Shown here: positions 31,089-61,013 of the stretch, in pieces
Numbering within the stretch: the first letter of the stretch is position 1
Layout of the letters: the number at the start of each line of letters is the position of its first letter
Program-made: the position numbers and the translations under genes
Origin: a virus
Virus record (IMG/VR): IMGVR_UViG_3300033512_000504
Direction: 5' to 3' (one strand)
Length of the DNA stretch: 63,451 nucleotides
Notes under the pieces: generated by a model
What the model was told of the DNA's origin: nothing
Seen by the model: only the letters and a program-made list of their open reading frames with translations
Databases searched by the model: none

Positions 31089-33014
31089 TTATATTGATAA
31101 ACCTGATCCACCAAATTTTGAAAAAATAGATCCGCCACCATATTGTTCCATCTTTTCAACCTGTTTTTTCTTTTGCTTTTTCTCATTATCTACATCGTTT
31201 TTTGCGGCATCATACATCTTTAACAATGTTTCTTTACCGACATGCCAACTCTCTTGCATACACCCATTTTCAACTAAAGCCTTGAAAACTCGACTATTAA
31301 CTTTTCTAGTTTCAACGGTATGAAGAAAATCCTTTAAATCCTTAAACGGCTGATGCTCAACAATACTTTCAACAGCTTTTGAGCCAACACCATCTAAAAC
31401 TGTCAATGGAGTTCGTAGCCCATCCTTTTCAATACCAGTTGATTCGTCCATAAAAGTAGCAATACTATACTTCAATCCACTTTTATTTATGTCTGGCGAT
31501 TTTATCATTATATCCATCCGCCTTGATTCCTGCTGATATGAAGCTAATTTCTTGCCTTTGTCAGAATTATTTATTTCCGAAGACAATAAACTACACATAA
31601 ATTCCAATGGATAATAAATTTTAAGCCAAGCAGTTTGATAAGCTAACATCGCATAAGCTGCACTATGTGATTTATTAAAACCGTATCCGCCAAAATATTC
31701 AATCTGCTCAAATATTGCCTTTGATGTCTTTTCATCAATATTGGAAAACGACTTGCAACCATCATAGAAACGAGTATCTAACTGTTCCTTTTTAATTAAC
31801 TCTGGCTTTTTCTTACCAACAACCTTTCTTAAAATATCAGCTTGACCAAGAGTAAAACCAGCTAGCTTTTGCACTACTTTCATTAAATCCTCTTGGAACA
31901 CAATAATTCCGTAAGTCTGATCAAGAACTTCGCCCATCTTAGGATGCAAATATTCAATCTTTTTACGCTTATGTTTGTAATCGCTATACAAATCATGTAC
32001 CCCTGCACCAAGCGGACCGGGACGATATAAAGCATTACACACAACTAAATCATTGAATGTATCAACATGAATACTCTTTAACAACTTTGATATTCCATGG
32101 GATTCGAACTGGAATATACCTCTATTATCCATATTCTTATACCCGCCGTTAAACAAAGCAAATACCTTTTTGTCATTAGGATCTAAATTGTCAATATCGA
32201 TATCAACACCATAACGTTTTTTAACGAGATTGAGAGTTTCTTCAATTACAGTCAGCGTTTTTAAGCCAAGCATGTCAAACTTCAAAAGACCAAGCTCTTC
32301 TACTTCTGACATTGTAAATTGAGAACAAATCGCCCCTTTAGATTCTCGAACAGGAATATGGTCAACGACAGGATCTTTGCAAATTATGATTCCAGATGCA
32401 TGAACACCAGCAGAAGAAACAATATTTTCGATTCTCCTACTTGCGTCTAGTAAATCAGGATATTTTAGCATTACATTTCGAAAAGCCTCTTCATCCTTCA
32501 ATGCAGATTCGATTGTTGTGCCGGGAACTTCTGGTATTAATTTTGCAATAAAATCAGCAACATCAAGACTCTTTTTCGTCATTTCAGCCTTGATATTGGG
32601 ATTACGTTTCTGATTTAACTGATAAATATCCCAATCGCCACCAATATCAATAGCCTTTGCAGCATACCTAATCGCCGCCTTCGCCTTAAAAGAATTATAG
32701 GTTCCGATTTTACAACAATAATCAGCACCATATTTGCGATTAATGTATTCGAAAATCTCATCACGTCTAAAATAATCAAAGTCAATATCTACATCGGGCG
32801 GACTAACTCGCTCTGGATTAATAAATCTCTCAAATAACAAACCATAAAGAATAGGATCAAGCTTGGTAATACCCAAAACATATAGACATAGACTACCTGC
32901 ACCAGAATTATGAACTGATAAACCTTCTACATTATATGCACTTAAATCTGGAACCGTTAAATCGTGTACTTTCCCTTGATATATTCTTCGAGTTATTTTC
33001 TTTATTTTAGCCAT
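31089..33014 (-). CDS. dnaE: DNA polymerase III alpha, C-terminal half, preceded by a 36-aa C-intein
   Basis: MAKIKKITRR...VHDLTV...VHN|SGAGSL; ERFINPERVSPPDVDIDF, GLLKFDMLGL, GFNKSHS. Confidence 0.95.
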   Translation of the reverse strand: MAKIKKITRRIYQGKVHDLTVPDLSAYNVEGLSVHNSGAGSLCLYVLGITKLDPILYGLLFERFINPERVSPPDVDIDFDYFRRDEIFEYINRKYGADYCCKIGTYNSFKAKAAIRYAAKAIDIGGDWDIYQLNQKRNPNIKAEMTKKSLDVADFIAKLIPEVPGTTIESALKDEEAFRNVMLKYPDLLDASRRIENIVSSAGVHASGIIICKDPVVDHIPVRESKGAICSQFTMSEVEELGLLKFDMLGLKTLTVIEETLNLVKKRYGVDIDIDNLDPNDKKVFALFNGGYKNMDNRGIFQFESHGISKLLKSIHVDTFNDLVVCNALYRPGPLGAGVHDLYSDYKHKRKKIEYLHPKMGEVLDQTYGIIVFQEDLMKVVQKLAGFTLGQADILRKVVGKKKPELIKKEQLDTRFYDGCKSFSNIDEKTSKAIFEQIEYFGGYGFNKSHSAAYAMLAYQTAWLKIYYPLEFMCSLLSSEINNSDKGKKLASYQQESRRMDIMIKSPDINKSGLKYSIATFMDESTGIEKDGLRTPLTVLDGVGSKAVESIVEHQPFKDLKDFLHTVETRKVNSRVFKALVENGCMQESWHVGKETLLKMYDAAKNDVDNEKKQKKKQVEKMEQYGGGSIFSKFGGSGLSI

Positions 33015-33958
33015 TTTTTTATTTTCACCTTCAAACTTTCTGTTTTACTATTTTCGTAAAAAACAATTTCGTCATAGTACTTTCTATAAAACTCCCTTAA
33101 GTATGTTTCTCGCCTAACATAGATACCCATATTATACAAATCATTCAATCCATAAACAACATATCTACTTCCAAATTCTTTCATTCCAGCGTTAAATTTT
33201 TCATGAAAATTATTATATTCTTTTGACCCTTTTATCTCTACTATTCTAGTTTTTCCATTTGAATATTTAACAAAAAAATCTGGATAATATTTTCTTTTAC
33301 AACCATTTGGATCAACGTAACTAATACTTCCTACAAATCTTTCTATAGACTTTATCTCAACGTTTTCCCAGCAATATGTCAAAAAGCACAATTCCCAACT
33401 ACTATCAAATCTGACATTCCTAATTGTACCACTCACATACGACTTAGAACATCTTTTATCTGCGTACATCGGGTCTTCTCGCATCAACTTCAATTGAGAA
33501 TCTCTTTGTTTATTTAAAGTTTCAGGTTTGTTTTGAGCTATTTTCTGAGCATTCGAATTATTATTTAGCCATTCTTGCGAACTTGTTGCATATCTCAATG
33601 AACATTTTCTGCAAATAGGCTTTGTACCACATATTTTCCTTATTTGCATCATTTTTATCGACATTATTTCATCTAAACCACATTCTTGACATATAAACTT
33701 TACTTTCTTTTTTGTTTTAAGCGTTTCTATAAAAGGTTTAACGAGATCATAATCCCAATATTCATCATTTAATTTATCTCTAAGTATTTCTGGGTAATAC
33801 TCTTTGCGAACCGATCCACCATGACTATGTAGCTTATAACACGGCTGGCAAATCGGTTCAGATGATTTTTCCCTCCGTTTTTGTAGCACTCCAATTTGTA
33901 TATCAAAATCATTTCCGCACTCTTGGCATTTAAACACTTCTCTATTTGCATTACTCAT
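33002..33958 (-). CDS. free-standing homing endonuclease (Zn fingers plus TnsA-like PD-(D/E)xK domain) between the dnaE halves
   Basis: CQECG twice, FDSSWE, YYPDF...IVEIKG. Confidence 0.8.
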   Translation of the reverse strand: MSNANREVFKCQECGNDFDIQIGVLQKRREKSSEPICQPCYKLHSHGGSVRKEYYPEILRDKLNDEYWDYDLVKPFIETLKTKKKVKFICQECGLDEIMSIKMMQIRKICGTKPICRKCSLRYATSSQEWLNNNSNAQKIAQNKPETLNKQRDSQLKLMREDPMYADKRCSKSYVSGTIRNVRFDSSWELCFLTYCWENVEIKSIERFVGSISYVDPNGCKRKYYPDFFVKYSNGKTRIVEIKGSKEYNNFHEKFNAGMKEFGSRYVVYGLNDLYNMGIYVRRETYLREFYRKYYDEIVFYENSKTESLKVKIKKWLK

Positions 33959-34049
33959 AAGTACCTCCTTTTCTTTTATTGCTTATGAGTAATAGTTCTA
34001 TATTTTAGTCGCAACCTCCTTCTTCCTACTCCAATTAAAATAACCTACC

Positions 34050-35453
34050 TCAACCAATACCGTCTTCAATATCAAATATTTCATCGTTTTCTGTCAAATT
34101 CCCAGCCTCTACAAAAACTAAAATGCCGTTTCTTTTAACATGTATTTTGTGATCTAATGTACAAGATATCTTTCTTCCGTCTTCCGTTTCTATTTCTACT
34201 ATTTCTTCGTCAATGTCATAATCCAACAAGTTCGTAACCTCATGATATTTACCATCATACGCCAGCACTTCATCCTCAAGAGTTACATCTTTTATAGCCT
34301 TCAATCCTAGTTTGCATTGAACTTTGGTTTCAGGAATAAAACAACCACGTCCAACTCCTGTCCTAATTGATTGTTGTCTGGCGTAATTTATAACATCCCA
34401 AAGAGTAAGGAAATACCTAACAAATCCGCAACGAACAATCAATTCCATTTCCATCTTGATACGTTCTCTATATTCTGGCTTTGTAAGTAGCCCTCTAGAT
34501 TTCATGCCATCTTTGATCAACTCCTTGAGATATTTTTCCTCGGTATCAAACCCATCTGGCAAATTGAAAAACGGCAATAAATCTTTTGATGGAATTAAGA
34601 TAGCATCGTTTTCAACCTTTTCAAAAATATCCATTGTATTCGTCAATAATTCTGGAGCACTCTTATACAATTCGTACATCTCTTCGTATGGACGTATATG
34701 AAACTCGTTACCATTAAATGTGAAACGTTTTGGATTTTTTATATGGTCATGAGTCTGCATTGATAACATAATGTCATGATATTTTGAATCGCATGCCTCT
34801 GCGTAGTGAGAGTCGTTAGTGCAAACCGCCTTGATATTTAATTTCTTAGCCAATAGATATAATTTCTTGGCTATTTTACGTTCATTGTTCTCTTGCTCTT
34901 TTGCCTCTTTATTATATTTATGCATCATGATTTCTATATAAAAATCATCACCAAATATTTCCTTATACTGGTTCGCAAAATCCAATGCTCCTTTTTCATC
35001 ATCTTGTAAAACTTTTGACGGCAACTCTCCAACACAACATGCGGTCAAACATATAATACCTTCATGATACTTCTTCAATAAATCCAAATCAATCCTAGGT
35101 TTATAATATTTACCAGCAGTTTCCGCAATAGTCGATAAATTCATCAAGTTTTGAACGCCTATATGATTTTTAGCAAGCAAAACTAAATGATGACGTGGAG
35201 AATCTTTATCACGAGAACGATGATCAGAGCACATGTATACTTCATTACCCAAAATAGGTTTTATTCCAGCTTCCTTACATGCCTTTTGAAAATCATACCA
35301 TCCTCCACAAGACCCATGATCCGTAATAGCCAATGATTTAAAGCCTTTTTTAACAGCCGATGCTACCATGCTTTCAGGAGATGAAAATCCATCCAAAACA
35401 CTATAATAGCTATGATTGTGTAAATGAACAAAATCGTGGATTACTTGTTCCAT
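34050..35453 (-). CDS. dnaE: DNA polymerase III alpha, N-terminal half (PHP domain) fused to an N-intein
   Basis: FVHLHNHSYYSVLDG, AITDHG, TNDSHY; GVGRG|CFIPETKV...SCTLDHKI intein blocks A and B. Confidence 0.95.
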   Translation of the reverse strand: MEQVIHDFVHLHNHSYYSVLDGFSSPESMVASAVKKGFKSLAITDHGSCGGWYDFQKACKEAGIKPILGNEVYMCSDHRSRDKDSPRHHLVLLAKNHIGVQNLMNLSTIAETAGKYYKPRIDLDLLKKYHEGIICLTACCVGELPSKVLQDDEKGALDFANQYKEIFGDDFYIEIMMHKYNKEAKEQENNERKIAKKLYLLAKKLNIKAVCTNDSHYAEACDSKYHDIMLSMQTHDHIKNPKRFTFNGNEFHIRPYEEMYELYKSAPELLTNTMDIFEKVENDAILIPSKDLLPFFNLPDGFDTEEKYLKELIKDGMKSRGLLTKPEYRERIKMEMELIVRCGFVRYFLTLWDVINYARQQSIRTGVGRGCFIPETKVQCKLGLKAIKDVTLEDEVLAYDGKYHEVTNLLDYDIDEEIVEIETEDGRKISCTLDHKIHVKRNGILVFVEAGNLTENDEIFDIEDGIG

Positions 35454-40888: not shown

Positions 40889-41302
40889 TTGTATAATATA
40901 AGTATGAATAAGAGATGGACACATTCTAATAAGGCAATCTTCAATATTGGATACCACTTAATATGGTGTACAAAATATAGAAAGCAGTTGTTAACAGAAA
41001 ATATAGAAAATAGATTGAAAACTCTTTTAGAACAAAAATCAAAAGACATAAATGTTTCAATAGAAAAATTAGAAGTGCTTCCAGAGCATGTTCACTTATT
41101 CGTAAAATGTAGTCCAGTAGATTCGCCACACTTTATAGTCCAACAATTTAAAGGGTATACCTCACGAATACTCAGAAGTGAATTTAAAGAACTTAGAACA
41201 AAGATACCCACTCTTTGGACAAGAAGTTATTATTGCGAATCATGCGGACATATCAGTGAAGAAACGGTTAAAAAATATATAGAAGACCAAAAGAACAAAT
41301 GA
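40889..41302 (+). CDS. tnpA: IS200-type Y1 HUH transposase
   Basis: YHLIWCTKYR, EHVHLF, LWTRSYY, YIEDQ. Confidence 0.95.
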   Translation: MYNISMNKRWTHSNKAIFNIGYHLIWCTKYRKQLLTENIENRLKTLLEQKSKDINVSIEKLEVLPEHVHLFVKCSPVDSPHFIVQQFKGYTSRILRSEFKELRTKIPTLWTRSYYCESCGHISEETVKKYIEDQKNK

Positions 41303-42360
41303 TATTGACATACAAAATTAAACATAACAAAGATTTTTCTAGCGAACTAAACATTGCTAGAAAAATTGCCAATTATGCTGTCACAACTAAATCAAGAAGC
41401 TCAAAGGATGTAAAGCACTTTGGTCTAAAATCCCAAATGTCAAACCAAATTCTTAAAAAATATTCCAAAAATAAAAAGTGCAAAACAATCACATCTGTCA
41501 AATTAACTGTACCAAACCAAGGAGTTAAAGTCAATCAAGAAACAAGAACAATAAAAGTTCCTGTACTAAAACTAGAACTAATATATCAGTTCCCAAACAA
41601 CTTCACCAAAATAAATCAAATAGAAGTGGATAATACCTATTGTTTTGTTTCTTGTGAAGTTCCTAACGAGAAAGAAACAAAATTCAAAGATTATATAGGT
41701 ATAGATTTGAACACCACTGGTCATTGTGCTGTAATAGCCATTCCTAAATCTAATAAGGTAATAAAACTAGGTAAATCAGCCAATCATATTCACTTGAAAT
41801 ATAAAAATTTAAGAGCAAAACTTCAAAAGAAAGGAGCGAAGCATCAATTAAAGAAAATCAAGAGAAGAGAACAAAACATAATTAAGGATTTAAACCACAA
41901 GATAAGCAAGAAAATAGTTCAAGTAGCAAAACAAAACAATTGTTGTATAAAACTGGAAAAATTAACTAAAATTAGAGAGAAGAGAAACAAGAAAACGCAA
42001 CAGTCATTCAAGTATTCCTTAAATAGTTGGAGTTTCTATCAGTTGAATATGATGATAGAATACAAATCCAAGATATTAGGGAGACCAGTTGCTTATATCA
42101 ATCCTGCATATACTAGCCAAACGTGTAGTAAGTGCGGAGTTATAGGTAATCGGAATGGAAAAGAATTCAAATGTGTTAGTTGTGGACACGTTGACCATGC
42201 GGATTCAAATGCAGCATTTAATATTGCTGCATTTGAATTATTGAACAACACTGAAAGCGATGGTCATTTAGTATTAGACAGAGATAATATTAAGAGGAAC
42301 ACTGATATCCTCAGATTAGAAAGTCAAATGCGAAGTGAGAACGTAGCATTTGTTAACTAA
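41299..42360 (+). CDS. tnpB: TnpB RNA-guided nuclease
   Basis: GIDLN, LEKL, PAYTSQTCSKCG, HADSNAAFNI. Confidence 0.93.
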   Translation: MILTYKIKHNKDFSSELNIARKIANYAVTTKSRSSKDVKHFGLKSQMSNQILKKYSKNKKCKTITSVKLTVPNQGVKVNQETRTIKVPVLKLELIYQFPNNFTKINQIEVDNTYCFVSCEVPNEKETKFKDYIGIDLNTTGHCAVIAIPKSNKVIKLGKSANHIHLKYKNLRAKLQKKGAKHQLKKIKRREQNIIKDLNHKISKKIVQVAKQNNCCIKLEKLTKIREKRNKKTQQSFKYSLNSWSFYQLNMMIEYKSKILGRPVAYINPAYTSQTCSKCGVIGNRNGKEFKCVSCGHVDHADSNAAFNIAAFELLNNTESDGHLVLDRDNIKRNTDILRLESQMRSENVAFVN

Positions 42361-43471: not shown

Positions 43472-44782
43472 TGTTGTTGAGCGGAAACCCCGACATCTTC
43501 AGTGTCGTGGGTTAGCGAAACTCATTTCCTTTCTTTAGTTTTCTATAGTATACATATATTTTAACAAAAATCAATAAAAAAAGAAGGGAAATACTAAATA
43601 GTTATAGAAGTAGGTTAATATATGAAATTAATTCAAACAGCTAAACTAGTTATAGATTGCTCACCATCTGAGTTCAAATCTACTATTCATGCTTATACTA
43701 ATGCTTTTAATCATGTTTGTCAAGTAGGATTTGACTCCAAGGATACCAATGGCGTTTCCCTACATCATAAAACTTACAACGAATGCAGGAAAGCACTTCC
43801 ATCTCAATTATCCATATCTGCCAGAACCAAAGCTACAGAAACGCTTAAGTCAGTTAAAGCTATAATCAACAAAGGCAAAAAAGCAACCTGTCCTAAATCA
43901 AAACAAACCGCTATTCGCTATGACGTTAATTCTTATTCTCTTTGGCTTAACAAAAATCTAATTTCGATATCAACAATTAACGGGAGAAAGAAATTCAATC
44001 TAATTATTCCTGAATACTTTAAACAATATCTTACTTGGAAATATACTACAGCAGATCTTTTCGTTAAAAACAACAAGGTGTTTATTCATGTTGTTTTTGA
44101 AAAGGAAACGGCAGATATTTCTTCAAATGATAACTTTGTTGGTATTGATCGTGGTATTAACAAAATAGCAGTTACATCTCAAAACAAATTTTATGATGGA
44201 AAGAAAATAAAATCTATTTCTCGTCGGTATGAGAAAATCAGAAGTATGCTTCAATCGAAAAAGCATTCTGGCAAAAGACACCTTAAGAAAATAAAATCTA
44301 AGGAACAACGGTTTCGTCGGGATGTCAATCATACAGTCACTAAACAAATAGTGAATTCGATTGATTCTGGTAGCACAATAATCCTTGAAAAACTTACAGG
44401 AATTAGAAATGCTAAAGCACGAAAAGAACAAAGAAAAGAATTGAACAAATGGAATTTCTTTCAATTTGAACAGTTCTTGAAATACAAAGCAATGGCTAAG
44501 GGTATTAAGGTTGAATACACTCCTGCACAATATACAAGTCAGAAATGCAGTAATTGTGGGATTATTTTAAAGTCAAACCGAAAATCTCAAGCTGTTTATA
44601 AGTGCAGTAAGTGTTCTTTCTGTTTGAATGCAGACTTAAATGCATCCAGAAACATACGAAAAAATTACTTGGACGCTATAAGCAATCCAAGTGGGGCTTC
44701 AGTCAATAAGCCTAATGCTCCTAGTACTCTTTTAGAGATAGTCGAGCAAGCCCAACCATCTTTAGTGGTTGGGTAGTTGACA
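43472..44782 (+). mobile_element. tnpB-only (IS1341-like) element
   Basis: Left TGAGCGGAAACCCCGACATCTTCAGTGTCGTGGG and right CCCAACCATCTTTAGTGGTTGGG hairpins flank tnpB; boundaries approximate. Confidence 0.8.
43622..44776 (+). CDS. tnpB: TnpB RNA-guided nuclease
   Basis: GIDRG, ILEKL, YTSQKCSNCG, NADLNASRNI. Confidence 0.93.
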   Translation: MKLIQTAKLVIDCSPSEFKSTIHAYTNAFNHVCQVGFDSKDTNGVSLHHKTYNECRKALPSQLSISARTKATETLKSVKAIINKGKKATCPKSKQTAIRYDVNSYSLWLNKNLISISTINGRKKFNLIIPEYFKQYLTWKYTTADLFVKNNKVFIHVVFEKETADISSNDNFVGIDRGINKIAVTSQNKFYDGKKIKSISRRYEKIRSMLQSKKHSGKRHLKKIKSKEQRFRRDVNHTVTKQIVNSIDSGSTIILEKLTGIRNAKARKEQRKELNKWNFFQFEQFLKYKAMAKGIKVEYTPAQYTSQKCSNCGIILKSNRKSQAVYKCSKCSFCLNADLNASRNIRKNYLDAISNPSGASVNKPNAPSTLLEIVEQAQPSLVVG

Positions 44783-45612: not shown

Positions 45613-45658
45613 TGTTGAACTATTATAATCGAAAAAAACAATTTTGCAATGAAAATAT

Positions 45659-45734
45659 TGGAGCCAATTGTCGGCTTCGAACCGACGACCTATAGTTTAC
45701 GAAACTATTGCTCTACCAACTGAGCTAAACTGGC
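45659..45734 (-). tRNA. tRNA-Thr(CGT)
   Basis: Cloverleaf, anticodon arm ATAGT-TTCGTAA-ACTAT, CCA encoded. Confidence 0.92.
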
Positions 45735-45811
45735 AAATACACAACGGTGCATTCGCTATTCTCGAATTACGAATTGTAGTGCGACTACAACATTGCACCT
45801 GCATTACAAAA

Positions 45812-45931
45812 TGGAGCCAAAGTCGGGAGTCGAACCCGATACAGTAGCGAACCGTGTCACCGTAGCACTTTATGAACCATCCGTCCCGTCAAATGGAACG
45901 AAGGAGAATCGAACTCCAAAGCATCTTTGGC
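45812..45931 (-). ncRNA. tRNA-like RNA with two T-arms and a nested, permuted acceptor helix
   Basis: GCCAAAG/CTTTGGC-T-CCA outer stem; T-arms GGAG-TTCGATT-CTCC and TCGGG-TTCGACT-CCCGA; no anticodon arm. Confidence 0.7.
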
Positions 45932-45937
45932 AAAATC

Positions 45938-46013
45938 TGGAGCCAGTTGACGGCTTCGAACCGACGACCTATAGTTTACAAAACTATTGCTCTACCAACT
46001 GAGCTAAACTGGC
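45938..46013 (-). tRNA. tRNA-Thr(TGT)
   Basis: Near-copy of Thr(CGT), loop TTTGTAA, CCA. Confidence 0.9.
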
Positions 46014-46020
46014 AAATATT

Positions 46021-46488
46021 CTATCCTTTCAATATTTTTATCGTTTCATCAACATGTTCTGCTAACAATCCGCCATTTTCAAATGACGTTTGAACTAAAT
46101 GATCCATTAAATGACACATATCGTCGTCATCATCTAATATTACAAACCTTTCTACTTCAGGATGATTAGTTAGCCACAATTGTATTTCATCTCCTCTGTT
46201 TTCAAATCCATCCTCTACTCTCTCATTATCCAAAACCGTTCTTTCAACAACAGGATTACCTATAAAGCCCTGTTCCCTAAGTAATGCATTTATGTCAATC
46301 TGCTTCTTTGCCTCAGCGTATCTCCAAGAAGATGAAAGTACAATCGTTAAATCATCAACATTCTCTACAATTCGATTCAATCTAGCAACTAACAAAGGGT
46401 CAATAACCCAACAAGAATGATTTGTTCCTTTCCCAAAAGAACTAGTGCAATTTAATACTCCATCGATGTCTAAAAATATAACATTCAT
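46021..46488 (-). CDS. HAD phosphatase, Swiss-army-knife RNA-repair-like family
   Basis: FLDIDGVLN, VLSSSWR, RGDEIQLWL, FVILDD. Confidence 0.85.
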   Translation of the reverse strand: MNVIFLDIDGVLNCTSSFGKGTNHSCWVIDPLLVARLNRIVENVDDLTIVLSSSWRYAEAKKQIDINALLREQGFIGNPVVERTVLDNERVEDGFENRGDEIQLWLTNHPEVERFVILDDDDDMCHLMDHLVQTSFENGGLLAEHVDETIKILKG

Positions 46489-46504
46489 TTTTTCCTTTAT
46501 ATTA

Positions 46505-46589
46505 TGGATCCGGTTGAGGGAATCGAACCTCCAGTAACTTTCGTTGCCGCATTACAAGTGCGGTGCTTTAGCCATTCAGCCAAACCGGC
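46505..46589 (-). tRNA. atypical tRNA-Thr(TGT) with long variable arm
   Basis: CCGCA-CTTGTAA-TGCGG arm, variable hairpin AAC-GAAA-GTT, G1:A72 mismatch, CCA. Confidence 0.75.
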
Positions 46590-46591
46590 AT

Positions 46592-46783
46592 TTAAAAAAT
46601 TTTTACTACCTTATTTAATTTTACATCATTGTTTTGTTTAACACATGACCCGTCAAAATGTTCCATATTAACCCTTCTTCTATCTAGTTTTTTATTACAA
46701 AATGAGCACTTCTCAATAGGACTTTGATAATAAACTTTCTTAACTTCTCCGTCTATCAATTCCAACGAATAATTACCACTCAT
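46592..46783 (-). CDS. small hypothetical protein (CxxC)
   Basis: True start likely MSGNYSL after AGGAG; the longer ORF overlaps tRNAs. Confidence 0.45.
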   Translation of the reverse strand: MSGNYSLELIDGEVKKVYYQSPIEKCSFCNKKLDRRRVNMEHFDGSCVKQNNDVKLNKVVKIF

Positions 46784-46800
46784 TTCATCTCCTTTAAAAA

Positions 46801-46877
46801 TGGTAGGAGTCATGGGATTCGAACCCATAAGACCCCAGATTAAGAGTCTGGTGCTTTGCCAAATAAGCTTCACTCCC
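46801..46877 (-). tRNA. tRNA-Lys(CTT)
   Basis: CCAGA-CTCTTAA-TCTGG, T-arm ATGGG-TTCGAAT-CCCAT, CCA. Confidence 0.88.
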
Positions 46878-46886
46878 AACAAAAAT

Positions 46887-46964
46887 TGGTAGGTGGTGAG
46901 GGACTCGAACCCCCGATAATGCCTGCGTGTAAAGCAGGTGCTGTTGCCGCTGAGCCAACCACCC
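46887..46964 (-). tRNA. tRNA-Val(TAC)
   Basis: CCTGC-TTTACAC-GCAGG, CCA. Confidence 0.88.
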
Positions 46965-47011
46965 ATTATATCATAATTTATTCCTTCTTATCTTATCATT
47001 TCCTTTTAAAA

Positions 47012-47086
47012 TGGTAGGTCGCCTGTGACTTGAACACAGTTCCGTAGATTAAAAGTCTACTGCTTCACCGTAAAAGCTTGCAACCC
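47012..47086 (-). tRNA. tRNA-Lys(TTT)
   Basis: GTAGA-CTTTTAA-TCTAC, CCA. Confidence 0.88.
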
Positions 47087-47088
47087 AT

Positions 47089-47124
47089 AAAGTCTAGTGC
47101 TGCTACCAACTGAGCTACATACCC
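47089..47124 (-). pseudogene. 5' half of a tRNA (Lys-like) ending in the anticodon loop
   Basis: GGGTATG-TAGCTCAGTTGGTAGCAGC-A-CTAGA-CTTT, then directly the next tRNA. Confidence 0.75.
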
Positions 47125-47161
47125 ATTTTTCTATTCTGTCTTCAAAAGACCTATATGCAAT

Positions 47162-47197
47162 AAAAAAGCCCGAAGTTATAATTAACTCCGGGCTTTT
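47162..47197 (-). terminator. attenuator terminator upstream of the Lys/Val/Thr tRNA cluster
   Basis: AAAAGCCCGGAGTTA-ATTA-TAACTTCGGGCTTTTTT. Confidence 0.9.
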
Positions 47198-47219
47198 CTT
47201 TAATCTGTCTTATGTAGGT

Positions 47220-47303
47220 TTACTTAACAAGACAAATCAAACCCGGGGCAGTCGTTTTGACTACCTTTACGGTTTTAGTTGTTTTTGTTTTGTAAGCGTA
47301 CAT
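47220..47303 (-). CDS. attenuator leader peptide MYAYKTKTTKTVKVVKTTAPGLICLVK
   Basis: 14 consecutive Lys/Thr/Val codons; 3' end overlaps the antiterminator strand. Confidence 0.85.
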   Translation of the reverse strand: MYAYKTKTTKTVKVVKTTAPGLICLVK

Positions 47304-47351
47304 TTTATTTTCTTTCTTTAATCGTGACCTATCTTTTAATTGTTCGAGATT

Positions 47352-47379
47352 AGTATATCTTATTCCTTTAAAAAATCAA
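47352..47379 (-). promoter_or_regulatory. promoter TTGATT-N16-TATACT
   Basis: Same spacing as the other copies in the window. Confidence 0.7.
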
Positions 47380-47388
47380 GACTTATTT

Positions 47389-48795
47389 TTAATCTTTAAT
47401 TTTTTGCAAATAATATTCATTAATTATAATCTGATTGTTAACATCGTTTGGTGTAAAACGCTTAGATATAATAACGATAGAATTTGGTTCGATATTGTAA
47501 TTATGAAAAATTGGCATATCGCTATTTAAAACTTTCATATTGCCAACAATACCGAATAATTGTCTTTCTATTGAGCTTGCTCCTTTACATGCCTCTTGAG
47601 TTAGAAGAAGCTTTATAGAATTTTTCCCTCCAACTATATAATGCATAAATGGCTCTAGTACATTTATTTTGTAATTTAAGTCAACTATAGAACGAGCAGC
47701 ATACGTAGATCTTCTATCTAGCAACGATCTGTATTTCCCGTATTTGATATTGAATTCATTAAATGTATGTGGCATATACTCTGTTCGATATATTGAATGG
47801 ATATAATCTGACGGTGGAATCCTGATATCTCCATCAAATATAATATCATCTCCACATATTTGCATTTCAGGAATGTCGTAACGTTGAGAATCTTGTATCT
47901 CTTGAATAATTTTATCGACTTTTAAAACAACATTATTGATCATTAATGAATTTTGAGCCACAACATCAGTATGGAAGCGTCTACATAGGGTGACATATTC
48001 AATTGCCATTCTAGCTTCTGCCGATGACATGTAATAAAACGGTTTGGCGTCCTTGATTGAATATAACGCAACTACATTCATCTGTTTTTGCATAGTGAAT
48101 TTATTATCTTTAGAGAACTGTTTCGCAAAATCTAACTCATTTTCTGAACAAAACATTTTTTTATCATGCGTATCTGGAATAAGACCTTGTAATCCAGACG
48201 ATTGTTCTAATTTTGAATTCAAATCGTTATTGTCGTCTAAAGTTATTGAATAACTGTAATTGGAAGATCCAAAACGAGCTGCTAAATTTTCCGCTTCTTC
48301 GGTATCTAATATAGGAGACTCATTCGGTGTTGCCTCTTCATGTACATGGTTATTTAATACCTTTATAATTGGTCCTCTAACCTCAGGTATGCCATTGACA
48401 TATTGCACGTTGGAATTTTTAAATACATGATCTTTTGCTAAGAATTTGTTGTCAAGACATTCTGTATCAATGCCCTCTTTCTTCAAATCGTCAATAGCTT
48501 CGTATACGCTATCTTTGATTATCAAATCGTCATCATGTTCTTCACATAATTTATTGGCTAGACTTAAATAGTCTTTAATATCAGGACTTTCGGAATCACA
48601 TTGATCAGTATCGATAAGTGATTCGAAAAGTTCATCCTTGTTTACTATATTATTTAGTAATTTTTCGGCTTCGCTATCTCCAATTGAAAAAATCTCTTCT
48701 TTTGATTGTGTTTCAGTTGGTTCTTGATTTTGTTCTTGAGAGACTGTATTATCGATCTCATGAGACATTTCTTGTGTGGTCGTTTCCTCTTTCAT
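47389..48795 (-). CDS. hypothetical protein, acidic N-terminus
   Basis: 468 aa with AGGAG RBS. Confidence 0.6.
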   Translation of the reverse strand: MKEETTTQEMSHEIDNTVSQEQNQEPTETQSKEEIFSIGDSEAEKLLNNIVNKDELFESLIDTDQCDSESPDIKDYLSLANKLCEEHDDDLIIKDSVYEAIDDLKKEGIDTECLDNKFLAKDHVFKNSNVQYVNGIPEVRGPIIKVLNNHVHEEATPNESPILDTEEAENLAARFGSSNYSYSITLDDNNDLNSKLEQSSGLQGLIPDTHDKKMFCSENELDFAKQFSKDNKFTMQKQMNVVALYSIKDAKPFYYMSSAEARMAIEYVTLCRRFHTDVVAQNSLMINNVVLKVDKIIQEIQDSQRYDIPEMQICGDDIIFDGDIRIPPSDYIHSIYRTEYMPHTFNEFNIKYGKYRSLLDRRSTYAARSIVDLNYKINVLEPFMHYIVGGKNSIKLLLTQEACKGASSIERQLFGIVGNMKVLNSDMPIFHNYNIEPNSIVIISKRFTPNDVNNQIIINEYYLQKIKD

Positions 48796-49496: not shown

Positions 49497-50105
49497 TTAG
49501 AACTTTTTAATCATAAGATGTTTGTCAAAATACATATTGGTTTTAATACCATTCTCGACGAATTGAGATATTACAATAGACGCCATGCCTGTTAAAGACA
49601 TAATAAACGGACGAGCAATTGACATTTCGCAAACATCTATTTCTGAATCGGATTTAGATGTAGTCATTGGCTCATAAATTTCATTCCAAGCGGCTTCTCC
49701 AGTCAAAAGAGCACTAAACCCTACATGCAAAACATTATATTTCTTTCCTAATTTCAAAAACAAATTTCGAGAATCGGCGTTATCAAATGCGTCAACGATC
49801 AAAGTGGAATCAGGATCTTTGACAATGTTCTTAATATCTTCAACAGACATTAATTTAGCATTTACAACGTCAATACGCTTCTGCTTATTTGTTTGAGCAA
49901 TCCTTTGTAACGCCTGAGTCTTAGGACGATTAAGATCTGCTTTTGTATAAGGTTGAGTGCCGGGGCTGATATTGCGATCTTCAATTGTATCAAAATCAAC
50001 TACGGTAAATTTAAAGTCTGGATAGGCATAAAGCAAATTCATAAAAACATTTGCACCAGCGGCTCCAATTCCACATATTACGATATTATCAATTGTTTTT
50101 TTCAT
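49497..50105 (-). CDS. ThiF/MoeB/E1-like ubiquitin-activating enzyme
   Basis: ICGIGAAG, VVDFDTIEDRN, KTQAL, VDAFDNADSR, DVCE. Confidence 0.9.
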   Translation of the reverse strand: MKKTIDNIVICGIGAAGANVFMNLLYAYPDFKFTVVDFDTIEDRNISPGTQPYTKADLNRPKTQALQRIAQTNKQKRIDVVNAKLMSVEDIKNIVKDPDSTLIVDAFDNADSRNLFLKLGKKYNVLHVGFSALLTGEAAWNEIYEPMTTSKSDSEIDVCEMSIARPFIMSLTGMASIVISQFVENGIKTNMYFDKHLMIKKF

Positions 50106-52052: not shown

Positions 52053-52188
52053 ATATCGTAATCCAAGTTGGCAATACTTTATTTGGTGCATAATGAGGGA
52101 ATTGAACCCTCAACGTTTTGATTAATATTCAAATGATCTACCATTGATCTAATTTTGCTTGTGAGTACTATCTGAGGGATTACGATAT
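52053..52188 (-). ncRNA. Y-RNA-like ncRNA B1: closing stem enclosing a tRNA-like cloverleaf
   Basis: 12-bp ATATCGTAATCC/GGATTACGATAT stem; inner D, anticodon-like and T arms with CCA (52084-52158). Confidence 0.7.
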
Positions 52189-52341: not shown

Positions 52342-52465
52342 AATAACGACCCAAGTTTGCAATACTGTATTATAGTGCGAAGGATTTGAACCTTCTCATT
52401 ATCCTTAGAAGGGATATGTTCAACCAAATGAACTTGCTTGTAAGTACTTCATAAGGGGTCGTATT
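52342..52465 (-). ncRNA. Y-RNA-like ncRNA B2: closing stem enclosing D, anticodon(TCT) and T arms
   Basis: ACGACCC/GGGTCGT stem; shares GTACT(T/C)ACAAGCAA and AGTATTGC.AACTT with B1. Confidence 0.7.
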
Positions 52466-52487: not shown

Positions 52488-52625
52488 TGGTGGGAAGAGA
52501 AGGACTCGAACCTCCAATTGCTTGTAAGCGTTTAAATAGGCAATTGATTTCTCAATTGAAGTAGTAATCGCATTTTTTGTTTAGTGTTTAATTGACTAAT
52601 GCCTTTACCATTTGGCTATCTTCCC
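52488..52625 (-). ncRNA. tRNA-like RNA A1 (138 nt) with ~65-nt insertion at the variable arm
   Basis: Acceptor GGGAAGA/TCTTCCC-A-CCA, D arm, T loop TTCGAGT. Confidence 0.8.
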
Positions 52626-52632
52626 AAAAAAG

Positions 52633-52770
52633 TGGCGGAGAGAGAAGGACTCGAACCTCCAATTGCTTGTAAGCGTTTAAATAGGCAATTGATTTCTCAA
52701 TTGAAGTAGTAATCGCATTTTTTGTTTAGTGTTTAATTGACTAATGCCTTTACCATTTGGCTATCTCTCC
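52633..52770 (-). ncRNA. tRNA-like RNA A2 (138 nt), tandem copy of A1
   Basis: Identical to A1 except compensatory acceptor GGAGAGA/TCTCTCC and discriminator G. Confidence 0.8.
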
Positions 52771-52935: not shown

Positions 52936-53409
52936 TCAAACAATTAATTTCAAATCGTTAATTTGCTCATCTCGAAAAACCTTACACCATTTAAAACGAC
53001 GAGAAAATCCTACACCTTCTTTAACAACATAAACGGCACATGACAAACCCGCTACCTCAATTTCAACTCCAACCACAATATATCTTTTACCTTTATATAC
53101 AACGATATCGCCCTCTTGAACATTATATTGATATAGTAATTCATGTTCTTTTGTTATTTGTGTTTTAGGATACACCAAAACCCCCTTGATATTCGATAAG
53201 CCGTTATGTGTTGCAATCATAGACGTAAACATAGATTCATGATCTCTAGATTCATCAACCATATATTTAAGTTCTTCTAACAATGTTTCTGCATCATCCG
53301 AATCCAAATGTAAATATCCGTTTTGCTTATTTACTTTTGCTTTGATATGTAACATTTTTAAAATCTCCTTATTTAACTGTTCTTGTCTTATGTATATACG
53401 ATCCATCAT
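52936..53409 (-). CDS. hypothetical protein
   Basis: 157 aa, overlaps the upstream gene. Confidence 0.5.
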   Translation of the reverse strand: MMDRIYIRQEQLNKEILKMLHIKAKVNKQNGYLHLDSDDAETLLEELKYMVDESRDHESMFTSMIATHNGLSNIKGVLVYPKTQITKEHELLYQYNVQEGDIVVYKGKRYIVVGVEIEVAGLSCAVYVVKEGVGFSRRFKWCKVFRDEQINDLKLIV

Positions 53410-54193
53410 TACTATAATCGCTTAATACATTTACCAAAGAACGTGCAGATTGAGTTCCGTCCCAATTAGATACACAAAACCCTGCTTCTTTTACTCTGAA
53501 ATCATTATCTAATTGAGTATTAATCGTTTCTCCATCAAGTTTCCATTGAACTTCAAATCCACGATTATTTTTCTTTACAAAATCAACAGTTGCTCCACCT
53601 TCAGACATAATTTGACGAATAATATTTTCTGGCTGGCTTAAAGCTTTTCGTAATTCCTCTTGCTTTCTCTCAATTGAATGGAAAGCATAAACGACTCGCA
53701 TTGGTGGAGTTACGCCTTTTATTTTTTCTATGGTCTGTTTGTTATCAAAAGCCAATTTCAAATCCAATAAAGGATATGCGTTTTGACCATAAACGATTTG
53801 TAAAAAATAGCAATTGCCATTCAACATGGCTACCTCTATCTCTTCAAATTCATCACAAACGCAATCTTTAACCTTGATAGGTATGTTAGTAAAATTGACA
53901 GGGTTTTCTGGCACAAAAGCGTCATGAAAAGAAATTCCCCTTAAAACTTTAACTTTGGAAGATTTACTAAAATAGGTTCTAGCGTCACTAATATTTGCCG
54001 GTTGAATAGTGGACATAAAATCATCCGACTCCATGTCAATACGATATATACCATTAGCAATATTATAATGAATTTGTCGAATCATCCTGTTAGAATGCCA
54101 CACCTTGTCAATAACGATTCCGTATATTAAATTCACAATTTCAAATCCATTTCTTTTAAAGCTAATTCCATATCGATAACATCTTGGGGACAA
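53369..54193 (-). CDS. Cys-containing protein of the Ubl-JAB-vWA operon (candidate E2-like carrier); true start probably downstream (MSTIQPA)
   Basis: C-terminal VQW...EAGFCVS..D...SLVNV; position directly after JAB. Confidence 0.55.
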   Translation of the reverse strand: MSPRCYRYGISFKRNGFEIVNLIYGIVIDKVWHSNRMIRQIHYNIANGIYRIDMESDDFMSTIQPANISDARTYFSKSSKVKVLRGISFHDAFVPENPVNFTNIPIKVKDCVCDEFEEIEVAMLNGNCYFLQIVYGQNAYPLLDLKLAFDNKQTIEKIKGVTPPMRVVYAFHSIERKQEELRKALSQPENIIRQIMSEGGATVDFVKKNNRGFEVQWKLDGETINTQLDNDFRVKEAGFCVSNWDGTQSARSLVNVLSDYSNDGSYIHKTRTVK

Positions 54194-54711
54194 AGATTTG
54201 TTACTTTAGACATACCATAAAGTATCCCTGTTACAATCTGCCAATCCATTTTATGACTTGCAACAGGAGAAGACATTATGTCAGAAACAACAATCTTTCG
54301 ACTCTCATCTCGATCAACAATATAATGAGATAAAATTCCTTCTAATCCATTACGAGTATGACACTGTGTAATTATCGAAAAATTAACAGGAACACCCAAA
54401 GCCATTCTCCAACCCTGACACATATTTAAATCTGTTGGAGACATGACAGAATAACCCATCGGATGAGTATGTAACATTAAAACTTTGCTCGGTTTAATAT
54501 CTTGAGATTTTATAAAACCCCAAATCTTATCCCAGTCAAAATCAACGGCTCCACCACAACCCTCTGTCCTTATTAATCCATCATCGGTTTCATGAATAAG
54601 CCCAGTAGTAATAGAGATACAGCCATGTTCAGGTGTAATAAAGCAAGATACCTCCTGATTAAAATTCAGAGAGATATCCCCATAATTCTTAAGTGATTGA
54701 CTTACATTCAT
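54133..54711 (-). CDS. JAB/MPN+ metalloprotease (deubiquitinase-like)
   Basis: E...HTHP...SPTD JAMM motif. Confidence 0.85.
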   Translation of the reverse strand: MNVSQSLKNYGDISLNFNQEVSCFITPEHGCISITTGLIHETDDGLIRTEGCGGAVDFDWDKIWGFIKSQDIKPSKVLMLHTHPMGYSVMSPTDLNMCQGWRMALGVPVNFSIITQCHTRNGLEGILSHYIVDRDESRKIVVSDIMSSPVASHKMDWQIVTGILYGMSKVTNLCPQDVIDMELALKEMDLKL

Positions 54712-54889
54712 TGTTTTGATTCTTACATTCGTTAATGAAAATTTTTCTCATTGTCTGTTCAGTTATTAAAATATCGCCGCTTACATTTGAGCAAGTTTTA
54801 ATTTCAACTGGTCTTATTGAAAAGCCAATCTATTTAAGTTGTCTTATGAAGCGGTTCGATACTTTAATTGTTGGAAAAACGATCATCAA

Positions 54890-56497
54890 TTACTTCTTGA
54901 CCGTATCCCACCATTTTGGCAATGTAGGAAGAGGAGTATCCATAATCTCGTCAACAAGAGCTACCTCACCTTTAACTGCCGTTGCTACCGCCTGAGGAAT
55001 CAAGGCAGATTCCTTAAGTGCCTCTGGCTTCATAATAGCAACTGGAATACCAGCCTTGTTAAGACCGTCTTCCAACTGACCCTTGTATTGAGCATTGCGG
55101 TTTGCACTAAAGTCAATAATAACAGCGGCTCTCGGTTTCGCAACACTAGGATTATCCGTATGATATTTATTAATACGTGTTACAATACTACCAACATTAT
55201 GTCCCTGATCCGTAATATAAATATCAACTTCTGCACCTTGTTTGCGAGCTTCATTGTAAAGAGCGATACAATCCGTTGACCCACCAGCCCTAACACCATA
55301 AAGAGATTTGTAAAAATCTTCCTTAGTAAAGGACTTCGGCAATGCCAACTGAGTACCCCTGTTGCTAAACAATCCCCAACCAAAGTTGCTAACAGGATTA
55401 TCTACGCACTCTGCAATTGTCGCAGCATTGTCCATAGCAAACTGAATTGCGTTTTGCATAGAACCGCTAGAATCAATGTGAAGGAAAATCTTTCCAAGAC
55501 CCGCTGCCTTTGCCGCCTTCTTGCGAACATCAGAACGAATCTTTGACATTTCTTTCTTGTCCTCTTCGTCTGCATTCCTAGTAAGCGTATCAATACGATC
55601 AACTGCCGTAGTAGATTCTGCAACCTTACTGTTAAAAAGACTCTTAATGCTCTTCACATCGAGATATCCGTTCTTGGCAAACCAATTGTACAAAATAATG
55701 GATTGATTTCCTGTGCAACCAGACAAAAGAGCCTTGGCAACATTCGCTGTAATTTTCTCCTTTGGAATAACAGACAAAGCAACCGTTGGAGACAATTTGC
55801 TCTCCGACAACTTCTGAGCGATTTCCTGAGATGTCATATTAGCGAAATCTGGCAAATTCTCCATTTTTGAAATGTCAGGTCCGCCAAACTTCTGCTTCCA
55901 TCTTAAAACAGCTGCCGCCTCTGGAATAGGTGAAGTCCTTGTCAAGCGATAAAGCTGCTGCATCTTTTTAGCTAAACCACTTCTTTTCATTCCACGAATA
56001 GAATCAATGTTGCTTTCACGGAATCCGATATATTTACGGAAGGCTGTTTTCAAACCTGTCGCAAAATGACAAGAATCATTAAGTTTTCCCTTTACTGCAA
56101 ATTTCTTATGAGCCAACTCCAATACTCTTAATGCCAAATGCGGATCAAGTTTCTGCAATACGGCATAGCTAACCTCACGATAGTTAGGCTTACACTGTTT
56201 TGCACCCTTGAAAAAAGGAGTTCCATTACCATCATTTAACGAATTGAAGAAAACGGAAACGACCTTCAAATCTTTCGACTCCTGATTAGCCGCATATGCC
56301 GTCAAATGAGCCATAAACATAGGATCATTAATAGCAACATCTGCAAAAACATTCGCCACTGCCAAGAACTTATCTTCCTGAAGTTTACCTTTAGAATACA
56401 AGTGAGTACATGCGGCGGACAACATTTTGAAAATTGCCAACCTCTTTTCATCCGAATATTCACCGAGTGCTGCGTTGCTAATTGTATCTGTGTTCAT
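54890..56497 (-). CDS. Ro60/TROVE-like protein with C-terminal vWA domain
   Basis: Helical N-terminus (DPMFMAHL, LYRLTRTSP); MIDAS IDSSGSM, GGSTD, YITDQGHN; Ro60-like length. Confidence 0.75.
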   Translation of the reverse strand: MNTDTISNAALGEYSDEKRLAIFKMLSAACTHLYSKGKLQEDKFLAVANVFADVAINDPMFMAHLTAYAANQESKDLKVVSVFFNSLNDGNGTPFFKGAKQCKPNYREVSYAVLQKLDPHLALRVLELAHKKFAVKGKLNDSCHFATGLKTAFRKYIGFRESNIDSIRGMKRSGLAKKMQQLYRLTRTSPIPEAAAVLRWKQKFGGPDISKMENLPDFANMTSQEIAQKLSESKLSPTVALSVIPKEKITANVAKALLSGCTGNQSIILYNWFAKNGYLDVKSIKSLFNSKVAESTTAVDRIDTLTRNADEEDKKEMSKIRSDVRKKAAKAAGLGKIFLHIDSSGSMQNAIQFAMDNAATIAECVDNPVSNFGWGLFSNRGTQLALPKSFTKEDFYKSLYGVRAGGSTDCIALYNEARKQGAEVDIYITDQGHNVGSIVTRINKYHTDNPSVAKPRAAVIIDFSANRNAQYKGQLEDGLNKAGIPVAIMKPEALKESALIPQAVATAVKGEVALVDEIMDTPLPTLPKWWDTVKK

Positions 56498-56540
56498 TTT
56501 GATTTCCTTTCTACTATGTTTTTTAAATCTATTATATCTA

Positions 56541-56819
56541 TCAGCCAGCTACAGGCTTAGGATAAACATAAATTGTATTCGAGTTCATGGCTTTTCTAAC
56601 TGTATAGGTAAAATCACCATAGGCGTCCTGATACCCGTCACGAGTTCCTTCCGCTTCCTCGATGATTCCAGCAACAGCCGTCAAAATATCACGAGAAGAA
56701 GAATCCATATTGACATTCAACGCTTCCATTGGTGTTGCAATATCACGACCATCCAAAGTTACAATAACCTCGTTACGAATCGCCTCTGTAACAACTACCT
56801 GATCAATTGCTTCTGCCAT
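56541..56819 (-). CDS. ubiquitin-like (beta-grasp) protein
   Basis: 92 aa ending IYVYPKPVAG with C-terminal Gly; heads the operon containing JAB. Confidence 0.65.
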   Translation of the reverse strand: MAEAIDQVVVTEAIRNEVIVTLDGRDIATPMEALNVNMDSSSRDILTAVAGIIEEAEGTRDGYQDAYGDFTYTVRKAMNSNTIYVYPKPVAG

Positions 56820-59117: not shown

Positions 59118-59146
59118 TGGTAGGGGCGGGTGGAGTTGAACCACCT
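59118..59146 (-). pseudogene. 3' tRNA fragment (T arm, acceptor strand, CCA) abutting the HNH gene stop
   Basis: GGTGG-TTCAACT-CCACC-CGCCCCT-ACCA; no 5' half found upstream. Confidence 0.7.
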
Positions 59147-59495
59147 AGTCAGTATTTTTCCAATGCTCTTTACGATGACAATTAGAACATAAAACCGCAC
59201 ATTTGTCAATCTCTTTTTTGATTCTATCCCATCCCCATCCTTTACTAATAACTTTGCTTATGATAACTTCTTTTTTAGATGGATCTTTATGATGAAAATC
59301 CATACATGAAGGATGATTCTCTCCACAACGTTCACATTTTATATTCTTTTTATAATCTGTTAGTTTATCGGACAATACACGGAGACGATTCCTTGTTTTA
59401 GTATATTGTTTATTCTTATTGCTTAGATACCATTTCTTCTGATATTCTCTATTATGTTGTTTCCATTCTGGCGATGTTCTATCTACTGTTGGCAT
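59145..59495 (-). CDS. HNH endonuclease inserted in the tRNA cluster
   Basis: CERCG...MDFHHKDP...KCAVLCSNCHRKEH. Confidence 0.88.
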   Translation of the reverse strand: MPTVDRTSPEWKQHNREYQKKWYLSNKNKQYTKTRNRLRVLSDKLTDYKKNIKCERCGENHPSCMDFHHKDPSKKEVIISKVISKGWGWDRIKKEIDKCAVLCSNCHRKEHWKNTD

Positions 59496-60569: not shown

Positions 60570-60790
60570 CCATCTTTCGCATTTATATAGTCCTTGCGTT
60601 TGATACTCATAAAATTGTTTCCTTCCTATTTCATTCGGTTCCGCCTTTGTTTTAGAAAAGACAGAACCGTTTATGCTCCCAGCAATTCAAAACACCTCAG
60701 GAAAACCATTTCGTTCTTTACGACATTCGTGTTTTTCCTTTTTTGACTCTTTTTCCTTCCCATTATATCATCTCCTTAAATTTTTACAAT

Positions 60791-60823
60791 AAAAAAGCTC
60801 GCAACATTTAAGTTACGAGCTTT
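60791..60823 (-). terminator. attenuator terminator upstream of the Ala/Gly/Ile tRNA cluster
   Basis: AAAGCTCGTAAC-loop-GTTGCGAGCTTTTTT. Confidence 0.9.
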
Positions 60824-60845
60824 CTTTAAACTGTCTAGTACTGTT

Positions 60846-60920
60846 TTAGACAGAGAAAGCCCGTAGCATGGCTCCTGCGCCTGCTATCGTTATTGCTATC
60901 TCTGTTCCGTTTATATACAT
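60846..60920 (-). CDS. attenuator leader peptide MYINGTEIAITIAGAGAMLRAFSV
   Basis: AAGGA RBS; 4 ATA, 3 GCA, 2 GGA, GGC, GCC control codons; 3' end is the antiterminator strand. Confidence 0.85.
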   Translation of the reverse strand: MYINGTEIAITIAGAGAMLRAFSV

Positions 60921-60985
60921 GACTAATTCCTTTTTATACCTGTTCTTTGCGATTAATACTTTGACCTTTAATTATTTTCAAATAC

Positions 60986-61013
60986 ATTATACATTAATAT
61001 TTTTGAAAATCAA
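60986..61013 (-). promoter_or_regulatory. promoter TTGATT-N16-TATAAT
   Basis: Recurring motif, ~65 nt upstream of the leader ATG. Confidence 0.7.

Follow-up and report, generated by a model that had tools for sequence, protein, structure and literature searches.

A putative ribosome-read attenuator ahead of a Lys/Val/Thr tRNA block in a large phage genome

Why should a block of transfer RNA (tRNA) genes in a phage genome be preceded by a short open reading frame (ORF) spelling the very amino acids which those tRNAs decode? The question is raised by positions 45,659 to 47,379, minus strand, of the IMG/VR virus record IMGVR_UViG_3300033512_000504. The stretch of 63,451 nucleotides (nt) analyzed here, the window, belongs to a large phage genome represented by a contig of 129,663 bases. 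The locus is best explained as a transcription attenuator read by the ribosome, in which slow decoding of Lys, Thr or Val codons would be the condition for transcribing the Lys/Val/Thr tRNA genes; we put the probability of this reading at roughly 0.87. Support for a leader-peptide attenuator comes from the predicted position of the switch, a shuffle control, a second and reciprocally matched unit in the same window, and homologs of that second unit. The leader comprises the following elements, with pairings given in base pairs (bp).

47352..47379, minus strand: sigma-70-type promoter candidate for the leader, 9 of 12 consensus matches
47220..47303, minus strand: leader ORF of 27 codons, MYAYKTKTTKTVKVVKTTAPGLICLVK, with an A-rich unstructured 5' region and a weak Shine-Dalgarno sequence
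47250..47291, minus strand: control tract, codons 5-18, exclusively Lys (5), Thr (6) and Val (3)
47241..47246, minus strand: antiterminator 5' arm, codons 20-21, predicted partner 47193-47188
47200..47240, minus strand: 14-bp hairpin 47240-47227 : 47213-47200, spanning the stop codon
47158..47199, minus strand: predicted intrinsic terminator with a stem of 17 bp (47199-47183 : 47178-47162) that is followed by a U tract

The layout is real and its coordinates hold. A first-pass annotation of this DNA had proposed the promoter, the 27-codon ORF with its uninterrupted Lys/Thr/Val tract and a U-tailed terminator in the region 47162-47197; the ORF is as it was quoted, the promoter stands as a promoter-like site and the terminator as the 17-bp stem listed above. 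Its pairings of the ORF's 3' end were found again as a hairpin and as an antiterminator that competes with the terminator, the hairpin having 14 rather than the 15 bp claimed. Judging from the folding model, this hairpin could be the scaffold of the antiterminator and possibly a pause hairpin. The promoter form TTGATT-16/17-TATAAT/TATACT occurs at nine minus-strand places in the window, the second leader described below included. With a purpose-built detector, the terminators of this leader (-20.7 kcal/mol) and of the second leader (-18.3 kcal/mol) were the strongest ORF-linked terminators among those listed for the window; a standard terminator scan of the window missed the one of the Lys/Thr/Val leader. 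The run of 14 Lys/Thr/Val codons out of 14 is unique in the six frames of the window, and no other run limited to three amino acids exceeds 11 codons in its 668 short ORFs; over the six frames as a whole there is one other 14-codon run of three amino acids, in a Ser-rich stretch of the plus strand. The fold of the leader has a z score of -5.1, which none of 200 shuffled sequences equaled. Contig pieces of sequencing run X1, which may be the source sample, span 47067-47558 without a difference.

The switch was modeled on the nascent RNA ending before the 3' arm of the terminator, with the position of the ribosomal A site varied and a footprint of 10 nt. The 5' arm of the terminator was sequestered with a probability of 0.98 when the A site stood at any of codons 1-17 and of 0.01 from codon 18 onwards, which agrees with the earlier proposal that a stalled ribosome frees the antiterminator. 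For footprints of 16 to 6 nt the last permissive codon ranged from 14 to 18, placing the switch point at the end of the control tract. The free-energy difference of sequestration (ddG) was -8.7 kcal/mol, a value equaled by 2 of 300 dinucleotide shuffles; by the probability measure, 11 of 300 shuffles did as well. With a ribosome stalled no further along than codons 16-17, 47246-47241 would thus stay available for pairing with the terminator 5' arm, and transcription would read through, while a ribosome past codons 17-18 would cover 47246-47241 and allow the terminator to form after about 185 nt. In the ribosome-free RNA the antiterminator forms with a probability of 1.00, and folding places no trp-type protector (1:2) helix in this leader. 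Since the antiterminator forms without a ribosome, the leader lacks a trp-type protector and would fail open: an untranslated leader is likely to read through, and a general block of translation would probably open the switch as well. The trp/thr/ilv-type layout assigned to the locus in the first pass is therefore present in its ORF, control codons, antiterminator and terminator but lacks the protector helix of trp.

Behind the terminator, the block that would be under control of this leader is arranged as follows.

47087..47124, minus strand: 5' part of a broken tRNA gene, with acceptor arm and D arm and ending near the anticodon, adjoining tRNA-Lys(TTT)
47012..47086, minus strand: tRNA-Lys(TTT), by tRNA call
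46965..46973, minus strand: extended -10-like motif directly 5' of tRNA-Val, possible internal promoter
46887..46964, minus strand: tRNA-Val(TAC), by tRNA call
46801..46877, minus strand: tRNA-Lys(CTT), by tRNA call
46592..46783, minus strand: ORF of 63 amino acid residues (aa) with two Cys and one His, from sequence
46505..46589, minus strand: tRNA-Thr(TGT), long form, by tRNA call
46021..46488, minus strand: HAD_SAK_2 (PF18143; HAD domain of Swiss Army Knife RNA repair proteins), E 8.6e-27, above cut-off
45938..46013, minus strand: tRNA-Thr(TGT), by tRNA call
45812..45931, minus strand: tRNA-like element ending in CCA, with an acceptor-like stem and two motifs resembling T-arms, no tRNA call
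45659..45734, minus strand: tRNA-Thr(CGT), final gene of the block, by tRNA call
45622..45649, minus strand: promoter candidate of the next gene, likely block end, 10 of 12 consensus matches

The six tRNA genes are those named in the first pass, which had described the block as holding these alone; it also contains the tRNA-Lys 5' fragment, the 63-aa ORF, the HAD gene and the tRNA-like element. The last of these (45812-45931, minus strand) has a permuted or nested look, with an outer acceptor-like stem carrying CCA, an inner T-arm and 3' end, and then a matching 5' arm. Among all 1140 possible sets of three amino acids, the set that fits the leader best is Lys/Thr/Val, the same set as that of the tRNAs downstream.

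A second attenuator-type unit with the same layout lies in the window at 60770-61013 (minus strand).

60986..61013, minus strand: promoter candidate of the second unit, 10 of 12 consensus matches
60846..60920, minus strand: Ile/Ala/Gly leader ORF of 24 codons, MYINGTEIAITIAGAGAMLRAFSV, from the ORF scan and its codon tract
60791..60863, minus strand: antiterminator arm 60863-60854 and terminator 60827-60791, from folding, kept in homologs L014 and L017
59037..60336, minus strand: tRNA-Ala(TGC), Gly(TCC), Ile(TAT) and Gly(GCC), with ORFs in between, by tRNA calls

The two leaders match their blocks reciprocally. In the Lys/Thr/Val leader 13 of 16 sensing codons belong to its own block (background 0.20) and 1 of 16 to the other, whereas the Ile/Ala/Gly leader has 11 of 16 for its own block and 2 of 16 for the other; the binomial tails are 3e-7 and 1.5e-5, respectively. 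That such small reciprocal sets of three amino acids arose by coincidence is unlikely. In the second leader the match extends to the anticodons, since 10 of 11 control codons, among them four ATA, correspond exactly to anticodons of the block (P = 0.0004 by synonymous resampling). Within the tRNA region of this unit, an ORF for an HNH endonuclease is followed by an orphan tRNA 3' half (59118-59495, minus strand); at 13733-14375 of L014 an Ala-like tRNA is seemingly split by an HNH-like ORF. Each block would have its separate loop, Lys/Thr/Val here and Ile/Ala/Gly at 60.9 kb, in which newly made tRNAs would close the leader ahead of them by decoding it, so that the supply of working tRNA would be under negative feedback. 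Such a loop would be opened by any loss of usable tRNA, be it cleavage by host or phage nucleases, dilution in the course of infection or poor charging.

Relatives of the locus were collected by means of an 85-aa neighbor protein, which yielded 25 loci (13 viral, 12 metagenomic). Four of the 25 contain tRNA genes, and three of these four have a leader (L007, L014 and L017); no leader was visible in L019, whose contig begins within the tRNA array. A leader identical to that of L017 was present in L016, on a contig ending past the terminator. Two of the ten IMG/VR records behind the loci carry tRNAs. The homologs of the second leader (L014 and L017, with L016) share the ORF, the Ile/Ala/Gly tract, the terminator and an invariant block of 20 bases that includes the antiterminator arm, and in both L014 and L017 the antiterminator was equaled by none of 150 shuffles. 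In L017 two pairs of the terminator core are changed on both sides in a compensatory manner, and all eight antiterminator pairs can still form. This covariation, which comes from three distinct sequences, is supportive, not strong. A candidate protector helix is conserved in the family, and the ribosome-free antiterminator probability is 0.86 in the second leader, 0.13 in L014 and 0.92 in L017. Downstream of the L014 leader follow tRNAs for Ala, Gly and Gly, one with a CAT anticodon, which possibly is Ile2, and Ile(TAT). A 17-mer of the second leader had one match in viral contigs, in an unrelated context and without tRNA, and the query A1 had no match in genome contigs.

Matched leaders are present in other phages as well. 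In L007 (9612-9829), which represents another phage lineage, a Cys leader with terminator precedes a lone tRNA-Cys, and the predicted switch falls at codon 15-16, after the third Cys. Neither phage G004 nor its kin is closely related to the phage studied here, and they were counted as separate cases. G004 has two leaders (L027, 9396-12991), each spelling the ten amino acids of its own tRNA block; the codons match the own versus the other block in 16 of 19 versus 3 of 19 and in 22 of 23 versus 2 of 23 cases, the cut-off codons having been chosen by us, with 18 of 21 and 23 of 24 under an alternative cut. Together they cover 21 of the 23 tRNA genes of G004, the Leu/Arg pair having no convincing leader. 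Shine-Dalgarno pairing, weak in the Lys/Thr/Val leader, is absent from the leaders of L007 and G004. Five named records (LR756511, S-PM2, KVP40, crAss001 and T5) were also checked. In LR756511, a phage record of 595 kb, a Ser/Leu/Tyr-rich leader with GTG start (L050, record position 437701, minus strand) is followed by 11 Ser, Leu and Tyr tRNAs; a second candidate (L051) is a mixed leader of 35 codons ahead of a large block. Candidate leader ORFs with terminators precede the main tRNA arrays of S-PM2 (L046 3369-3530, record position 118368), whose record lists no coding sequence for the leader, and of KVP40 (L048, record position 178917, minus strand). The blocks of both span at least 13 amino acids, so a codon match there proves little. 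The detector found no leader in crAss001 or T5 and none ahead of the second tRNA group of S-PM2.

As to the setting, the window encodes DNA polymerase III alpha, clamp, clamp loader, RecA, SbcC, topoisomerase I and a tail tube protein. DNA polymerase III alpha is divided into two ORFs around an intein fragment (intein-HNH region) and a separate ORF (31089-35453, minus strand). Among sequencing runs, the best match came from a metagenome of a microbial mat, and a search for a close cultured relative of the phage found none. A gene for Tpt1/KptA lies about 2 kb past the Lys/Val/Thr tRNA block; two ORFs that look TnpB-like by eye (41299-42360 and 43622-44776, plus strand) are located on the opposite strand on either side of it. 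The genes at 53369-56819 and 49497-50105 (minus strand) resemble a ubiquitin-like conjugation set, with a ThiF protein identified by domain match, a small protein and a JAB-like ORF (54133-54711) both recognized by eye, and a 535-aa protein without Pfam match in which a vWA-like motif was seen by eye. In the third tRNA group of the window (52.1-52.8 kb), two near-identical tRNA-Leu(TAA) genes (52488-52625 and 52633-52770, minus strand) share an insert of 58 bases in the anticodon loop, less than the length of a group I intron and the same in both genes, and two tRNA-like bodies with anticodons ATT and TCT (52058-52175 and 52352-52452, minus strand) have poor acceptor stems and similar flanking motifs.

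Several observations weigh against the attenuator reading. The Shine-Dalgarno pairing of the leader amounts to +0.2 kcal/mol, a value equal or weaker in 13% of 52 genes of the window. At equilibrium, the complete RNA favors the terminator wherever the ribosome stands, and the switch must therefore be kinetic; equilibrium folding of the entire leader was set aside as a test, as attenuation is decided before the 3' arm of the terminator emerges. The extended -10-like motif at 46973, one of nine such motifs on the entire minus strand of the window, could let the later tRNAs bypass control by the leader. In the Lys/Thr/Val leader the match to the block holds at the level of amino acids; at the isoacceptor level, 10 of 14 exact matches are what chance would give (P = 0.48 by synonymous resampling), and for four of the 14 control codons (ACT twice, ACC and GTC) the block offers no exactly matching anticodon. 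The third tRNA group is immediately preceded by a promoter and lacks a leader of this kind, and L017 has kept its Ile/Ala/Gly leader with one intact tRNA (Ala) called in its 9.2 kb. The scan of related phages suggested in the first pass did produce matched leaders before other tRNA blocks but no homolog of the Lys/Thr/Val leader: none was recovered through flanking proteins in viral contigs or through their alignment in viral and genome contigs. A shared-motif scan had 0 matches, a codon-pattern scan returned 11 loci with 0 leaders, further codon-pattern scans returned 67 loci (33 in short frames, one with a tRNA, none with the layout), and blastn in phage records gave 12 short matches at chance level. 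Its own helices therefore have no support from covariation. One contig of run X2 (depth 3.6), in which the control tract from 47248 onward is joined to a diverged tRNA-Val, may from its sequence be the leader of a relative.

A narrower form of the attenuator reading takes the element as a working switch specifically for counter-defense, supplying replacement tRNAs after host anticodon nucleases have cut tRNA-Lys, Thr or Val. We regard this restriction as possible but somewhat doubtful. In its favor, the RNA-repair-type HAD_SAK_2 gene sits within the tRNA block and the Tpt1/KptA gene beyond it, and the tuning of the second leader to the exact downstream anticodons points to tRNA supply rather than amino-acid supply. 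In published work, phage is rescued from PrrC170 by phage tRNA-Lys, and the rescue from retron Eco7 by tRNA-Tyr is promoter-dependent (PMC11555353). The G004 leaders, however, cover nearly all of its tRNA genes, as would suit homeostasis in general better than a response to a single nuclease, and the Lys/Thr/Val leader shows no isoacceptor tuning.

It is unlikely that the attenuator senses mainly amino-acid starvation, that is uncharged tRNA, in the manner of the thr and ilv leaders, with the tRNA block as a starvation response. The layout is that of biosynthetic attenuators, the leader has a weak match to Rfam Thr_leader, no isoacceptor bias is seen among its Lys, Thr and Val codons, and to a stalled ribosome uncharged and missing tRNA are indistinguishable. 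Yet the regulated genes encode tRNAs and provide no amino acids, and the Ile/Ala/Gly grouping as well as the ten-amino-acid groupings of G004 track the content of the tRNA block, not a pathway.

Still less credible is a vestigial or bypassed element, whether through poor translation of the ORF, a default antiterminator or internal promoters that make most of the tRNA. The weak Shine-Dalgarno sequence, the antiterminator formed by default, the motif at 46973, the broken tRNA fragment and tRNA-like remnant in the block and the failure to recover a homolog of the leader would agree with decay, but the ORF, the 14-codon tract, both helices and the terminator are intact and in register. Transcription starting 6-8 nt past the 46973 motif would presumably land within tRNA-Val, and the L007 and G004 leaders likewise do without Shine-Dalgarno pairing. 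A general sensor of translation coupling, or a small RNA or peptide gene with a coincidental codon-tRNA match, would suit the predicted read-through of an untranslated leader but is highly improbable given the reciprocal three-amino-acid sets in two blocks here, the ten-amino-acid sets in two blocks of G004 and the absence of an Rfam family at gathering level for the leader.

Beyond this locus, we are inclined to think that in large phages of several lineages tRNA blocks are each placed under a leader written in their own codons, as a self-closing gauge of decoding capacity which, among other things, would detect tRNA-cutting host defenses and respond by supplying replacement tRNAs together with an RNA-repair enzyme. 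If the attenuator reading is true, tRNA genes would control their own expression by way of the ribosome, one codon at a time, and ribosome-mediated attenuation would reach beyond enzyme genes to tRNA genes, where the product itself shuts the switch, and beyond cells to viruses. Why phages carry tRNAs is a long-standing question, and the codons of the leader would tell which tRNA shortage a phage is built to detect, providing a readout from sequence alone of the host tRNAs that run short during infection. With the candidates in S-PM2 and KVP40, which are cultured phages, the idea can be tested although the phage studied here is uncultured. A literature search, conducted mostly by title and beginning of the abstract, returned no leader-peptide attenuation of tRNA genes; an older mention in comparative genomics may exist.

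Among known systems, the leader-peptide attenuators of enterobacterial amino-acid operons, represented by trpL and by the multivalent thrL and ilv leaders, come closest. They share with the present unit a short ORF, a run of control codons, an antiterminator competing with a U-tailed terminator and, here by prediction, a switch at the end of the run. In contrast, the targets here are phage tRNA genes whose products decode their own leader, the set of amino acids follows the tRNA block, and the Lys/Thr/Val leader has no protector helix. The match to Rfam Thr_leader (RF00506) reached 31 bits against a gathering cut-off of 55 (E 0.0024), and the leader is hence not a member of that family, which occurs in the context of threonine biosynthesis genes, whereas tRNA genes follow here. 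Leader-peptide feedback on the translation apparatus itself is known from the pheST attenuator of E. coli with its pheM leader; it concerns a synthetase, one amino acid and a cell, the present case tRNA genes, three amino acids and a virus. T-box riboswitches also report the status of tRNA by a terminator/antiterminator switch, with direct binding of the tRNA and without an ORF. No T-box match was obtained in the window, where the Rfam matches at gathering level were tRNAs alone.

For the leader-peptide mechanism as such, the attenuation of pheL has been described (PMC3082878). The trn operon of Anabaena PCC 7120 is a tRNA array induced by impaired translation (PMC8421152) and stands under the repressor TrcR (PMC10272220). 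Its control is by a repressor and not codon-specific, and PMC8421152 contains 'attenuat' and 'leader' 0 times. On the side of function, PMC11555353 reports that phage tRNAs counter tRNA-cutting defenses, namely the tRNA-Tyr of T5 and SP15 against retron Eco7 and a phage tRNA-Lys against PrrC170. There, a high output comes from a strong promoter, 'attenuat' occurs 0 times in the text, and no leader was detected before the T5 tRNAs. What that system shares with the unit described here is a phage tRNA-Lys taking the place of a cut host tRNA, and an effect for which the level of expression matters.

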